Source: Microthyrium microscopicum (Eukaryota). Taken from it: a stretch of DNA of 64,000 nucleotides. This document shows positions 44,516-64,000 of the stretch, piece after piece (position 1 is the stretch's first letter; every line of letters starts with the position of its first letter). The position numbers and the translations under genes are program-made. The stretch spans positions 248,001 through 312,000 of the forward strand of contig MU004246.1 in assembly GCA_010405405.1 (NCBI GenBank). Reading direction: 5' to 3'. The notes under the pieces were generated by a model. It did no database searches. It saw nothing but the letters and a program-made list of their open reading frames with translations, and was not told the origin of the DNA.

Positions 44516-45471
44516 CTATGCTTGCTGAATCAGCCAAATTGTGAATCACGTGATGAGTATTTCGGCTGACTGATCCAGGCTCCCAGATGACCTCGATGCG
44601 CAGGCGGAAAAGTTGAGGGCATGCATTTTGAAGCTAGAGGATGGAGAAGGCATGGCGCTTTGATGAGAGATTGTGTGTTGTGTAGTTAGTGAAAGGGAGG
44701 TTGAAGATGAAGACAAAGAGCTGGTGCGGGTAGAAGTGCAGTTTCAAGTCGGTCAGGAAGCAAGACTGAGAACAGGACGACAGAAAAAGCACAGGCATAA
44801 GCAGGCCAATCTTCGGCTTGCAGATCAAAGCTTCCCTAGAGCAAATCATGAAAATGCAACGACAAGGCGTTGCAATCTGCCTTTCAATCCTCGTTCTCCG
44901 GCGTATGCGGGGAAGGACGGAAGTTCTCCATCCTGAGACACATCCAAAGCTTCAGTCAAGAGGCTGCAAGCACCGGATCAGGAAGAGTGTGCTGCCTTGT
45001 GCTGCTATATAATTTGTGCCGGAATTCAAAATACATATCCTATAAACTAGACGTCCTGCTCTGAATATAAAAGCATTACATTACTGAAATTCACTCGGAG
45101 GTAGTAGCTTGTGTTTTATGAAGAGCTTCGGCTGAACCTTCCCATTCAGAATCTAGCGCCTTCACAACCATAAGGCTGAGACAAGGCTGAAATTACTCAC
45201 GGAATCCGCAGCAAATTCTTCTGGAACTGAGCTCAGCTTGTTGATGAGAAAAATCAATTCAGATAAGTGAGGAGTTTTGATTAAGTTTAGAACTGATACC
45301 TAGAACTTGGTTAATCATCTATGATATTGCTGTTATGGCCTCTATCGTGGACGCTTATTCAACCGCTGGCCCATTATTTAATACATCATTGAAGAACCAT
45401 AAATCTTTCGTCTTCCTATCTGTCTTCCAAAATAGCGGTTAATGAGGGCCACTCTAAGACAAGAGTGTGTT

Positions 45472-47525: not shown

Positions 47526-48573
47526 GTTGGAAGTTATTGTAGGATCAACTTGGAGGCGATAAAGTGTCACGGGTGATGGTGGAAGACCGGCTTTTTAAAC
47601 AGATGGCCCGTGGAAGACGTCGTCAAGACTGATATGTGGTCCACTTCAGATTCTGTACCAATTGACGATGATTCATGTTCAAGCCAAGAGACTAGAACAC
47701 CGGACACAAATAATAGCCTGATAAGCGTACATGTCGAAGAGTTTAGCCTCAGCTGGGTGCTATGTTTCACCCGACTATTGAGAATCTAGTTTCCAAGTTT
47801 ACGCATTGTCACAGAAAGTCTCCTCGACTTTCTTATCATCGTGCTAAACATGCTATGATCTAGGTAGTTATTACATAACCTCACATTCTATAGATTCCGC
47901 ACAACCATGAAAAGGCCGGGACAAAAATGAGAACATGCCCTTAGCTGATTCTGCTGTGTTTATATAGTTGTGTAGACGCTGGTCGTTGAATCCAGGACGT
48001 CTCACTTCAGAAACTTTTTTACTTTATGTCTACAGAGCAAGTGGCTGTACTGGGAGACTCGGTGTTGATGAGGTAATATTAGCAATGTATTTCCGAGTGG
48101 TGAAGTTCTTGACAGCTTCTTCTAAAGCTTGAAACTCGGCTCCTGTTGCTGGAAGAGGTGACATGGTTCAGTCTGCAGTGCAAATGGCATGGGCTGGCGC
48201 TGTGGTAGTGGTGGAAGATAAGACAGTATGGTGGTCAGTCAGTGTTATATGACATATGGCTGGGCTCCGTAAATAGCCACCAGCTTGCTCGTGGGACCAT
48301 TGCATTTTATATCTTGAAATAAAGAAACACCAAGCGACTTGGAGAGGTCTAGGTTCTTGGTAAAAAGGTTTGGCTAGCTGTTCCTAGGCTTCAGTACCGG
48401 ACATAGTCGAGGATCAGTGGACATGATACGTGTCGTTACCAGAGTTTGGTTTTCGCTAAATATATTATATAACCCACAAGAGCTCAAGCTCGTGGAAAAT
48501 TTCTCCATCGACTTCACTCCCCCTGGTTCATATCTTGAAAGAGCGCATTCCATCCCGCCGAGCTAGTTACATC

Positions 48574-60339: not shown

Positions 60340-61521
60340 CTATGATGCCGGTGGGCCGTTGAGTTTCTCCTTGATGCTGGGGATGTTTGGGTTGTCGTCT
60401 TGCGATAGGGTGGTGCGGCGTTTCTCGTGTTGGCCTTTTTCGTGGCGGGCTTGATCGAGAGCGGATCGTTGGGCGATGCTGTCGTCGTGGGACTTCCATA
60501 CTATGTTGGTGTCGCCAGGCAGGTTTAGCACGCGCTTGACTGTCTCTCTGTGAATTTGGTTAGCAGATGATGGGTATAATCTGAGTGAATGGGTCATACC
60601 TGATCTTGATGTTACGACCGCCGTCATTCTTGGTCCAGATCGAAAAGACATCTTCGCCGCTTCGCACGCTCAAAACCGCACCACTGACTTCATCCGAAGC
60701 CTCGGCGAATTGGTCGCCGACAAGCGCCATGAGAAGATCTTCCCAGTAGCGGTCTGAGACGCCCTTCTTCAAGCGAATAATCCATTTCCCGCCGCGCTTG
60801 TTCTCTTCGTCTTCCCAGACTGGGCGTATTCCGTCTTTGAAGAAGTGGTAGTCGGATACAGTAGGGAGCTCTGATGGGCGCTTGAGATGGCTATACACGC
60901 GCCAGAATTGTTGCGCGGTCGAGAACTTGCACATGGCTTTGGTGGATTTCTCGTAGTCCGAGTTCTTGGATGTTGGTGGTCGGTACCAGATGACCCAGCT
61001 GTACTTTAGTGGCCAGGGTGTTCCACGGTCGGTGGAGTCTCTGGAATCATCGGGTGAGGTTGTTGCAGGAGTTTTGATAGATGTGGAGTGATTTCGTGCG
61101 GGTCCGGTTTTCTCTTTCTTTTCTGCGGATGGAGCTGAAGAGTTGGTCATGCCTACAGCTTTGCTGAAATCAAAGGCTGTTCCGGGAGTCTTTGGAGTTT
61201 TGGTAGCAGAGCCAAAGGAAGAAAAAGCGCCTGATCCAAGACCAAAAGCAGCCGAAGCTCCACCCGTGGGCGAGGATATGGAGTTTGTTGTCAATGGGGA
61301 CATGTTCTTGAAAGGATCGGATCGTCCGCCATGCGAGCTTCCTCCGCCAAAACGCTTGCTTTGAAAGAGACGAGCCGTGGATTCGGTGTCATTATTATCG
61401 TTGTGAGTCGCGAGGGAGAGTTTTGAAGAACTGTTTCAAAGATCTTGCGTTAGTTTGTAAAAGGCTAAAGAGATAATAGATCATACCCAGAGCGACGAGT
61501 CCAGAGGTTGTCGCGATCCAT
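60340..61521 (-). CDS. eIF4E-family cap-binding protein, class II (eIF4E2/4EHP-like)
   Basis: Exons 61521-61487, 61430-60600, 60547-60340. Motifs PLKYSWVIWY, DYEK (Tyr at the Trp56-equivalent position, diagnostic of class II) and FKDGIRPVWEDEENKRGGKW. Confidence 0.9.
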
Positions 61522-62049
61522 AGCGATGGACTAGTCAATAGAATGAGATATCAAGTAATGTACAACAGCTAGCGAAAGGGCTGAAGCTCTGGGCAGAGCT
61601 AGACCCAGGGTGTGAGAAGATTGGAGCGCAGAGATGGGTATAAAATAGCCGATTAGAGTTGAAGCAAGCAGGTGTTCCGAAGGAGTTTTGGGGATGAATT
61701 TTGCGAGGGTGCGGAGATGGCGCAGTGTCAGTTGATGGAGAGGAGAAGAGTCGAATGTTTGAGCAATGAGCAGCGGTATTGAGACGGTTCGGGCCAGTGG
61801 GCGTAATTATGAAGCAGTAGAGAGTATCAATTGTTGAATAGAGACGGGGGCGGGATGGAGATGATTCTGGGGACAATTGGAGAGTTGCAACTTGCAACAG
61901 TAGAGATTCAGAGACAGCAATGATCATGAATTGCCGCTCCACTCTTTCCTTTGGCCAAACTACCAAACTGGACAAGGGTTCCAAGCTAGGCCTGTTTGGG
62001 ATTTCTGCGGCTTGGCGCGAACCACAACTACATCCCAAACTTTTGCTGC

Positions 62050-62490
62050 ACTTCTTTCTCTTTTTCAACCACGGCCGTCACAACTCGTCCTTTGTAGCTT
62101 ATTTGCTTATACAATGCCGGCGATGGTCTCTCGAGACCTCTCATCGGCCCAGAATACGCTCATCCCGCTTTAAAACCGTCAATCCGAGCGCCCCTCGTGC
62201 GGCGTCCATGACACTTTGGCGACCTAAAAGTCTGGGACATTCATCTTCATAAAATCTGCTCTTTTGTAGTAGTAATTCAATTGTAAGTTCTCTCTACTGT
62301 TCAAACCATTCCGCCTTGATGAGTCAACAGAAGCTCTGGTAATCCTACTCAACCTCGTTCTACACGATGCTGCGGCCTCACGACGGTTGAGATTGACGAG
62401 CAAAAGGCAAAGTCTGAGCTTCAAAACTCACATACTTGTTTATCCCCGAAGCATGTCATAATATCTTGCTAACGGATTACAGAATATTCT
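62050..62490 (+). ncRNA. Probable non-coding snoRNA host transcript with a 200-nt intron (62283-62482); transcript ends approximate
   Basis: Strong GTAAGT donor, GCTAAC branch point (62468) and CAG acceptor. Only a 19-codon ATG ORF (62114-62173) lies upstream. Divergent from the eIF4E gene. Confidence 0.6.
62313..62419 (+). ncRNA. Intronic box C/D guide RNA predicted to target U2 and U5 snRNAs
   Basis: Box C TGATGA 62317-62322, D' CCTA 62344-62347, stem CTCAACC/GGTTGAG, C' TGACGA 62394-62399, box D CTGA 62414-62417 and a terminal GC/GC stem. Guides are TCTGGTAA and CAAAAGGCAAAG. Confidence 0.8.
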
Positions 62491-62491
62491 C

Positions 62492-63331
62492 TTATTCCCT
62501 GACTTCTATTTTGGTGTTGAAGCGTACTCTGCTTTCACCCACAACCAAAGCCCAGAAATCGTACCATGCTTCCCATGTCTCTTCATCAGGCGCATTCAGC
62601 AAGCCAGTGTAGCCACCTCCAACCCCATAAACCTCCAGGTACCTTGGAGGAACCATCTCGGTCATATCATGCAGCAAACTCGACGCATCCATGTTGACCT
62701 GTCTCACCGCTCTGGTAATTTCCTTCCACTCCTTTCGTATTTCCTTATCCTCCCTCTTAGGACGTTTCCCTTGTCGTCTCCAGCTTCCCCGCTTGCGTAA
62801 AGTTTCCTGGAGTTTTTCCGACCTTCTTTGCAACTCATCAAAGCGTTCCATCACTCGCTCTACCAGCTCAGGTAATTCGTACGCCGCTTTCGATCCTTGT
62901 GTTTGCAAGCGTTCATTTCTGGCTGTGTCTTTGGTCACTGGGTTGTTTGCTAGGTAATCTAGTAGGTCCAGCATGTCAGCTATATCAATGAATAGATGTT
63001 CTATCTGTCCCCAGGTGAGACGATCGAGCCGACTCCCTATTGTAAAGCCCATCTTCATCCAAGCGTATGCTCGATCGACGCTTTGTTGCGCCATTGGGCA
63101 CCTGTCACTTGGTTCCTCGCCGTTTTCGGAGTCCACTTTGTTGTCATGGCTTTCTGTTGCTTGGCTGTCCAGCTCTTTTATCTCCGGCTTACGAGATTGG
63201 TCTGCTACCCTTGCCTGGCTTTGGGCGTCTTCCTTGGTCTGACTCGAAATCCTGGACTTTTGCTTCGAAATTGGGTTGATAGCACGGTCAGCCTCTACCA
63301 CTGGATTGCAATGTTGTTTGTTGTTGGCCAT
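62492..63331 (-). CDS. Orphan helical protein (tandem paralogue 1)
   Basis: ORF of about 279 aa. C-terminal half is similar to the neighbouring ORF at 63710-64000. Confidence 0.7.
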   Translation of the reverse strand: MANNKQHCNPVVEADRAINPISKQKSRISSQTKEDAQSQARVADQSRKPEIKELDSQATESHDNKVDSENGEEPSDRCPMAQQSVDRAYAWMKMGFTIGSRLDRLTWGQIEHLFIDIADMLDLLDYLANNPVTKDTARNERLQTQGSKAAYELPELVERVMERFDELQRRSEKLQETLRKRGSWRRQGKRPKREDKEIRKEWKEITRAVRQVNMDASSLLHDMTEMVPPRYLEVYGVGGGYTGLLNAPDEETWEAWYDFWALVVGESRVRFNTKIEVRE

Positions 63332-63709: not shown

Positions 63710-64000
63710 CTATGCCATGCCCAGAAAGCGTTTAATGCTCTCTTTACCTTCCACAATCCCTTGTAAGATTGGATCTAGGAACCCAGCCAAACCACCATCG
63801 TTCTCAGCACTCTCCACAAACTCCGTAGGAAGCAAATCCACGACATTCCGCAACAATCTCGAAGCATCCACATTAACACTCCTCACCGCCTTCGTCAACA
63901 ACACCTGCTCGTCACGAGTAAGCTCCTCCCCAGCGCTCTTTCGCAAATCGTCCTCGGTTGTTCGAGACAGGCTCAGCAACCTATCAAAGCTCCTATTCAC
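63710..64000 (-). CDS. Orphan helical protein (tandem paralogue 2), 3' part only
   Basis: LTKAVRSVNVDASRLL aligns with ITRAVRQVNMDASSLL of the adjacent gene. Runs off the window end. Confidence 0.7.
   Translation of the reverse strand: MNRSFDRLLSLSRTTEDDLRKSAGEELTRDEQVLLTKAVRSVNVDASRLLRNVVDLLPTEFVESAENDGGLAGFLDPILQGIVEGKESIKRFLGMA

Follow-up and report, generated by a model that had tools for sequence, protein, structure and literature searches.

Can a single small RNA, carried within one intron of a filamentous fungus, guide the ribose methylation of two different spliceosomal RNAs? The question is raised by a locus of Microthyrium microscopicum (Eukaryota) that lies in a 64,000-nucleotide (nt) stretch of contig MU004246.1 (GenBank assembly GCA_010405405.1, positions 248,001 to 312,000 of the forward strand). 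This whole stretch is referred to here as the window, and all coordinates are numbered within it. An earlier note on the DNA, made from the letters alone, had proposed that an intron at this locus encodes a dual-guide box C/D RNA acting on the small nuclear RNAs (snRNAs) U2 and U5. The analysis described below indicates that the element is very probably a real small nucleolar RNA (snoRNA) of the box C/D type maintained by selection, as judged from comparison with an orthologous locus. The best explanation of its two guides is that they direct ribose methylation of U2 and U5, a proposal for which the case is evenly balanced.

Architecture of the Candidate snoRNA

The intron occupies positions 62283-62482 of the plus strand, is 200 nt long with GT..AG ends, and was removed exactly in one contig of a public run, referred to as run X1, in which position 62282 is joined to 62483. 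Within it, every element of the C-D'-stem-C'-D order described in the earlier note can be read in the sequence (Table 1). The D guide CAAAAGGCAAAG lies exactly where it had been placed and occurs once in the window, while the coordinates given for the D' guide, (GC)TCTGGTAA at 62333-62342, are likewise correct. Box D had been put about 50 nt before the branch point, and the measured interval to the branch A is 54 nt. A rule for the suitable distance between snoRNA and branch point is cited in Liu et al. (PMC2780460, its references 41 and 42).

Motifs of this kind are weak evidence by themselves, because a crude motif scan of both strands of the window turned up 30 box C...box D pairs, of which two were also accompanied by a C'-like box and a short terminal stem. 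Besides the candidate, a short box C...box D pair of 55 nt, in which TGAGGA resembles C', is located at 45242-45296 on the plus strand and probably arose by chance.

Conservation in an Orthologous Locus

Metagenome contigs were scanned twice for related loci. The first scan, which required TGATGA together with both guides, gave no matches, and the second, using the pattern GANCAAAAGGCAAAGNCTGA, gave 99 loci, 87 of which sit within open frames of at least 80 codons. The D' guide was found in a matching snoRNA architecture at two of the 99, L019 and L033. Since these contigs are identical across all 3020 nt, they count as one independent ortholog, referred to below as L019. The other 97 loci were rejected, as none of them contains the full D' guide block. 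For example, L003 has only a chance CTGGTAA word, with no box C seen and the full D' block absent, and the AT-rich, non-coding L008 (match at 1501-1520 on the minus strand) has a TGATGA about 100 nt upstream of GCAAAAGGCAAAGACTGA without a D' guide, which is regarded as coincidence. Patterns with both guides also gave no matches in the collections genome_contigs and viral_contigs, a result of little meaning given that these collections are prokaryotic or viral.

The orthologous locus retains the surroundings of the element as well as the element itself. Upstream, on the other strand, is a gene for eIF4E (53% identity across 187 aa), and the same conserved block, an snR42-like element described below, directly precedes the intron. 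The predicted intron of L019 reads GTGAGT...CTGAC...AG and would be about 207 nt long, and the interval from box D to the branch A is 53 nt, as compared with 54 nt in the window.

Within the snoRNA itself, conservation is concentrated in the guides. The D' guide is identical at 11 of 11 positions and the D guide at 12 of 12 (23/23 together), as opposed to 35 of the remaining 70 snoRNA positions, a disparity that suggests two antisense elements under selection. The search pattern imposed identity of the D guide but did not include the D' guide, for which a match of 11/11 against a background of 50% has a chance probability of ~5e-4 at that fixed place. The boxes range from complete identity to moderate divergence (box D 4/4, C' 5/6, D' 3/4, box C 4/6). 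With reference to the consensus RUGAUGA, box C in the window has U rather than a purine at the R position, whereas the ortholog reads AUGAGGA; the latter sequence would swap the U-U pair of the kink-turn for G-U. The internal stem is also kept in L019, where the arm TTCAGCCA pairs with TGGTTGAG and two single-sided changes produce G-U pairs.

Conservation of boxes and guides in related fungi had been suggested as a check on the prediction, and the identity of both guides in one ortholog bears it out. Because the ortholog keeps the guides, the synteny and the spacing between box D and the branch point, the snoRNA stands above what chance would produce, and there is very good reason to regard it as a genuine, selected member of the box C/D class.

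Predicted Target in U2

The nucleotide to be methylated is chosen by the D/D'+5 rule, as stated in the Background of PMC2780460. The complement of the D guide, CUUUGCCUUUUG, is present at 12 of 12 positions within the stem-loop I RNA of Saccharomyces cerevisiae U2 printed in PMC10630445, which is a yeast sequence and not the cognate U2; the claim that the complement belongs to the 5' region of yeast U2 is upheld to that extent. The authors of that paper describe the stem-loop I RNA as including parts that pair with U6 (PMC10630445). The chance of a 12-mer match in an RNA of 28 nt is ~1e-6.

Counting five bases upstream from box D leads to A62409, whose partner in CUUUGCCUUUUG is the third U of CUUUG, and the D+5 nucleotide is the U just 5' of the G. 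This would be yeast U12 if, as we take to be the case, U2 starts one nucleotide before the printed sequence. Yeast U2 numbering runs one ahead of that of vertebrates, as seen in the pseudouridines (psi) psi35/42/44 of yeast versus 34/41/43 of vertebrates (PMC7960923). The D+5 nucleotide therefore falls at vertebrate U2 position 11, in agreement with the proposed alignment to human Gm11, a modification guided by scaRNA2 (PMC7960923).

On the strength of this pairing, U2 is the probable target of the D guide. The U5 snRNA was also considered for this guide and judged less likely, because the terminal C of the block would pair with a G of the printed U2 at a place where the U5 motif has A. An Rfam scan with a 23-nt D-guide sequence produced only a chance riboswitch match and no U2.

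Predicted Target in U5

The first letters of the D' guide's complement, UUACCAGAGCU, are UUAC, with which the conserved U5 loop-1 motif GCCUUUUAC ends. G62339 pairs with the first C after UUA in UUACCAGAGCU, and the D'+5 nucleotide is the last C of GCCUUUUAC. This register hinges on placement of the D' box at 62344, which the CCGA of the ortholog supports. In human U5 the last C of the motif is Cm45 (PMC4824092), and methylation of C45 is guided by scaRNA10, also known as U85 (PMC7960923); the equation of the D'+5 nucleotide with human Cm45, the U85 target, is consistent with both sources.

The broader claim, that the D' guide matches the 3' side of U5 loop 1 in yeast, held for one part of the sequence. 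The UUAC segment fits the conserved motif, whereas a full-text literature search found neither the D' complement nor the yeast U5 string GCCUUUUACCAGA in print. A designed U5-hairpin probe gave no matches in genome_contigs and viral_contigs, where, as noted above, a negative result says little, and U5 was not found in the 14 control genomes searched. That loop 1 of U5 is the target of the D' guide is, from the pairing described here, given an even chance.

A Model for Dual Guidance

Perfect duplexes between the two guides and their targets would have computed energies of -15.5 and -16.9 kcal/mol, both of which fall inside the range of mean energies of accepted fungal targets (-11.5 to -23; PMC5824354). 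That both predicted targets are correct together is given a probability that at best reaches even and may fall a little below it.

In the proposed mechanism, the snoRNA sits in the first intron of a dedicated host gene, exon 1 of which carries the snR42-like H/ACA element. After splicing and debranching, the intron would presumably be trimmed down to the RNA, which would assemble with the methyltransferase complex of fibrillarin (Nop1), as is established for intronic box C/D snoRNAs. The D element would then form a 12-bp pairing with U2 nucleotides ~9-20, in stem-loop I, so that the U corresponding to vertebrate position 11 becomes 2'-O-methylated. On U5, the D' element would pair along the 3' side of loop 1 and into the stem beside it, and its 2'-O-methylation target would be the last C of the invariant loop, which corresponds to human Cm45. 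For this to occur, the cognate U5 would carry UUACCAGAGC(U) starting inside loop 1, and the portion of the D' guide beyond UCUGGUAA would face the U5 stem next to the loop. The earlier note went further and envisaged a functional coupling of U2 and U5 modification, for which nothing in the analysis provides support.

Alternative Explanations

A number of observations weigh against the proposal that this RNA guides methylation of U2 and U5. With respect to structure, the D' box is degenerate and the terminal pairing consists of 2 bp (GC at 62313-14 with GC at 62418-19), with ~3 bp, offset, in the ortholog; short terminal stems are common among intronic snoRNAs. The energy of the minimum-energy fold is ordinary (z = -0.72), as is usual for box C/D RNAs. 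The D' guide contains G|GTAAT, which resembles a 5' splice site, and copies of the guide with one mismatch occur at 62708 and 62865. Furthermore, the stable RNA of ~105 nt is itself a prediction. With respect to conservation, the comparison involves a single independent ortholog, found with a pattern that required the D guide, so that only the conservation of D' is unbiased.

With respect to targets, the predicted matches are to S. cerevisiae U2 and a general U5 motif rather than to the fungus's own RNAs, and the comparison covered U2 and U5 sequences rather than ribosomal RNA (rRNA). In the 11-nt D' complement, the published U5 motif accounts only for UUAC and the C after it. A match of the CAGAGCU portion to yeast U5 is putative and would reach no further than UUACCAGA. 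In the literature, the U5 of S. cerevisiae is without 2'-O-methyl groups and none is listed for its U2 (PMC7960923). The list of 55 box C/D snoRNAs of Neurospora in Table 1 of PMC2780460 includes no target at U2 position 12 or in the U5 loop, and no U5 guide is among the 27 candidates of an Aspergillus screen in the available part of its description (PMC2377427).

One alternative is that the RNA is a genuine, conserved box C/D snoRNA of which one or both guides act on rRNA, U1, transfer RNA or messenger RNA (mRNA), or have no methylation target at all, the complementarity to snRNAs being partly fortuitous. This is a serious possibility, though one clearly short of an even chance. The scope of the target comparison (S. 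cerevisiae U2 and the U5 motif, not rRNAs or cognate snRNAs) leaves room for it, as does the extent of the published U5 match, which backs the D' complement only across UUAC(C). Single-sequence predictions, moreover, often mislead (Canzler et al., PMC5824354), and such snRNA targets are not listed in the available parts of published fungal surveys (PMC2780460, PMC2377427). Against these considerations stand the exact 12-nt match to yeast U2, with its chance probability of ~1e-6 (a perfect 12-mer in ~7 kb of rRNA plus snRNA is expected ~4e-4 times), the correspondence of both predicted nucleotides to positions that are methylated in vertebrates, and the apparent selection on both guides.

A second alternative regards the conserved blocks as intronic cis-elements, either a cryptic 5' splice site or sites at which U2 and U5 pair while the host is being spliced, with the box motifs being incidental. 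The splice-site-like G|GTAAT in the D' block and the recurrence of similar words downstream speak for this explanation, as do the lack of a significant fold and the short terminal stem. It is nonetheless improbable. In both species, box C, box D and C' lie at canonical distances from the conserved blocks, and conservation extends to box D and to its spacing from the branch point (54 versus 53 nt). Upstream of the GT the conserved block continues for 7 nt, more than a splice site would require, and no alternative joint at 62338 is present among the joints of run X1. In addition, the locus behaves like a snoRNA host gene, because an element resembling an H/ACA snoRNA is also present. Finally, chance assembly of motifs in an ordinary intron, for which the two box pairs of 30 that pass extra criteria and the z-score of -0.72 might speak, is highly improbable when set against an orthologous locus with guides conserved 23/23 versus 35/70 elsewhere, together with conserved synteny and intron placement, and the 53% identity of eIF4E speaks against L019 belonging to this species or being a contaminant of its assembly.

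As a separate observation, copies of the D' guide word with one mismatch are found at 62708-62718 and 62865-62875 on the plus strand and at 48436-48446 on the minus strand. At one mismatch, the word has four matches in comparison with 1.0 expected, a count reached in none of 100 shuffles. Both plus-strand copies can be read as 5' splice sites (G|GTAATT), and the excess may merely mirror the splice-site consensus.

Host Transcript and Neighboring Genes

If the snoRNA is processed from an intron, the nature of the host transcript is of interest. Run X1 is one public run in the form of a contig set whose kind is unrecorded, and the contig that spans the junction is 2592 nt long and starts at 62088. 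Contigs of the run also skip two introns, with CT..AC ends, of a neighboring minus-strand gene (60547 joined to 60600, and 61430 to 61487). As these introns are missing from contigs of one and the same run, X1 is most simply read as containing complementary DNA (cDNA), and the snoRNA-bearing intron as having been cut from a plus-strand transcript. The interior of the intron (bin 62326-62432) is uncovered in X1, which carries no weight on the snoRNA either way.

The program-made list of open reading frames (ORFs) contains no plus-strand ORF across the splice junction; the sole plus-strand ORF there, 61920..62252, stops before it. Since no long ORF spans the junction, the host transcript is probably non-coding. 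The sequence past the junction is antisense to a minus-strand ORF of 279 aa (62492..63331), which has a paralog at 63710..64000. Motifs such as VN.DAS.LL are common to the two paralogous ORFs. The host transcript and the mRNA of ORF 62492..63331 seem to overlap convergently. Of note is that the contig covering both the junction and this ORF is unstranded and does not prove that they belong to one single transcript.

The host looks like a dedicated non-coding snoRNA host gene, divergent from the gene for eIF4E. The latter is represented in the list by ORF 60560..61303 on the minus strand, a member of the IF4E family of Ascomycota. Two introns of this eIF4E-like gene, one of 56 nt in its 5' leader and one of 52 nt near the end of the listed ORF, are those skipped in X1, and the listed ORF is incomplete as a coding sequence because its introns are skipped in the run contigs. 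Between the covered ends of the eIF4E and snoRNA-host contigs is a gap of ~220 bp (61864-62088) that looks like a shared bidirectional promoter. The divergent arrangement of the two genes around this gap is also kept in L019.

Table 1. Positions of the candidate snoRNA, its intron and the upstream element in the window.
Feature	Position	Strand	Basis or remark
Box C/D snoRNA candidate, 107 nt, ends inferred	62313..62419	+	Boxes, fold and ortholog alignment
Box C, TGATGA	62317-62322	+	Sequence; TGAGGA at the aligned place in L019
D' guide block, AGCTCTGGTAA	62332-62342	+	Complement UUACCAGAGCU; fifth base upstream of D': G62339
D' box, CCTA, degenerate	62344-62347	+	2/4 versus CTGA; CCGA (3/4) in L019
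Internal stem, 5' arm	62348-62357	+	Minimum-energy fold
Internal stem, 3' arm	62381-62391	+	Minimum-energy fold; GGTTGAG unchanged in ortholog
C' box, TGACGA	62394-62399	+	5/6 to consensus; 5/6 identical to L019
D guide, CAAAAGGCAAAG	62401-62412	+	Complement CUUUGCCUUUUG; fifth base upstream of box D: A62409
Box D, CTGA	62414-62417	+	Sequence; CUGA in ortholog too
Intron hosting the snoRNA	62283..62482	+	Joint 62282 to 62483; GTAAGT, CTAAC and AG read in sequence
5' splice site, GTAAGT	62283-62288	+	Sequence reading
Branch site, CTAAC	62468-62472	+	Branch A is 62471, 54 nt past the end of box D
3' splice site, AG	62481-62482	+	Sequence reading
Host exon 1, minimum extent	62088..62282	+	Run X1 contig record 6, joins to 62483
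snR42-like H/ACA element, in exon 1	62033..62243	+	RF01265, 9.4 bits, E = 4.3 (weak)

An snR42-like Element Upstream

Exon 1 of the host contains the element, mentioned above, that resembles the H/ACA snoRNA family snR42 (RF01265). The sequence at the orthologous place in L019 (1218-1329) is a better match to this family (34.3 bits, E = 2e-7) than that of the window, and both scores are under the gathering score of 61 bits. An ACA box occupies 62238-62240, AGAATA near 62142-62147 is a candidate H box, and the 3' hairpin includes the conserved pocket words UUAAAACC and GACCUAA. The RF01265 alignment covers only the 3' hairpin and pocket, and the minimum-energy folds are without a clean H/ACA shape. 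The element is consequently termed snR42-like and is not an established snR42 member. It ends about 40 nt before the 5' splice site. In yeast, snR42 is a guide for rRNA. If the H/ACA element is real, the host locus would yield an exonic H/ACA snoRNA as well as an intronic C/D snoRNA.

Implications

The RNA described here is tentatively regarded, at somewhat less than even probability, as an uncatalogued box C/D snoRNA of the Pezizomycotina that would be the first fungal guide for U5 loop 1 of the catalytic center (the Cm45 equivalent) and would combine it, on the same simple intronic RNA, with a guide for the 5' end of U2 (the Gm11 equivalent). Were this the case, both snRNA methylations would predate the split between fungi and animals and would have been lost in budding yeast, and neither a composite RNA of the Cajal-body type nor an independent gene would be required for the two marks. 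Filamentous fungi would then have the predicted marks in common with animals. Because they are absent from budding yeast, they are not open to study there, and the single locus would offer a genetically tractable handle on both, with a clean deletion test in a filamentous fungus.

As regards function, efficient splicing requires the ribose methyl groups within the first 24 nt of human U2; of these five groups, all but Gm11 are essential individually (PMC7960923). For the methyl groups of U5 loop 1, the role is still unclear (PMC7960923). With respect to annotation, the locus would represent a snoRNA family missed by both ORF-based annotation and Rfam, and would show an exonic H/ACA-like and an intronic C/D element combined in one compact host locus for snoRNAs, which is conserved beside eIF4E.

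Relation to Known Families and Systems

An Rfam scan had been suggested as a check on family membership, and at gathering scores it gave no matches in the whole window. In a permissive scan (E <=10, positions 62200-62520), the sole match was to snR40 (12.1 bits, E = 6.5), which is misaligned and attributed to chance. Rfam at E <=1 likewise gave no C/D family matches in L019 or L033.

The earlier note had called the RNA scaRNA-like, that is, similar to the scaRNAs, small RNAs specific to Cajal bodies. As Cajal-body localization elements, C/D scaRNAs carry long GU/UG repeats and H/ACA scaRNAs a CAB box. No localization element is visible in the candidate, and no GU/UG repeat run is present in 62313-62419. 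For this reason the name scaRNA is unsuitable, nothing supports the earlier label, and the term "snoRNA with snRNA targets" is safer.

No printed description of the guide was found in the literature search, outside of which were two possible listings, Additional files 1 and 4 of Liu et al. and Tables S14 and S16 of Canzler et al.; the Bmc1 paper covers U6 only. CD10 of Neurospora crassa was considered as a homolog and dropped, since it belongs to the snR87 family and has a D' target in 18S rRNA (PMC5824354).

Among human guides, two select the equivalents of the nucleotides predicted here. Methylation of U5 C45, the equivalent of the present D'+5 nucleotide, is guided by scaRNA10 (U85) (PMC7960923, PMC4824092). 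In contrast to U85, the present RNA is a plain box C/D RNA and lacks an H/ACA domain; the element that resembles H/ACA is 70 nt upstream, in the exon. U85, a Cajal-body RNA, combines box C/D and H/ACA parts and is responsible for psi46 as well. Similarly, scaRNA2 (HBII-382, or mgU2-25/61) is the guide for U2 Gm11, the equivalent of the present D+5 nucleotide (PMC7960923). The latter is U rather than the G selected by scaRNA2, and the two RNAs show no sequence relation, the Rfam scans being without a match. scaRNA2 is also independently transcribed and much longer.

Closer parallels exist among the filamentous ascomycetes, in which snoRNA-guided methylation of snRNAs is documented. For instance, CD29 of N. 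crassa is assigned to U2-Am31, a site mapped by primer extension (PMC2780460). Together with Afu-191 of Aspergillus fumigatus, CD29 is related to human SCARNA9 (mgU2-19/30), and, like the present RNA, the two are C/D guides for the 5' part of U2 (PMC2780460, PMC2377427). CD29 is also intron-encoded in Neurospora, as is the present RNA (PMC2780460). The CD29/Afu-191 guides target U2 A31/A32 and, with their second guide, 5.8S rRNA, whereas U2 ~12 and U5 are the predicted targets here, a distinction drawn from the published descriptions of these RNAs rather than from their sequences. Other Neurospora C/D snoRNAs with predicted snRNA targets, which are mostly intron-encoded, include CD24 (U5-Am62), CD26 (U2-Gm183), and CD11 and CD54 (U6) (PMC2780460, PMC5824354). 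These select other nucleotides and, in the published parts available, none is directed to U5 loop 1 or the U2 5' end; the D' target of CD26 has been revised by Canzler et al. (PMC5824354).

The host locus, too, has counterparts in Neurospora, where UHG-like hosts are non-coding, spliced and contain intronic box C/D snoRNA, as is observed here (PMC2780460). The present host differs from them in its combination of one intronic C/D snoRNA with an exonic H/ACA-like element, and in having a second exon that overlaps a convergent protein-coding gene.

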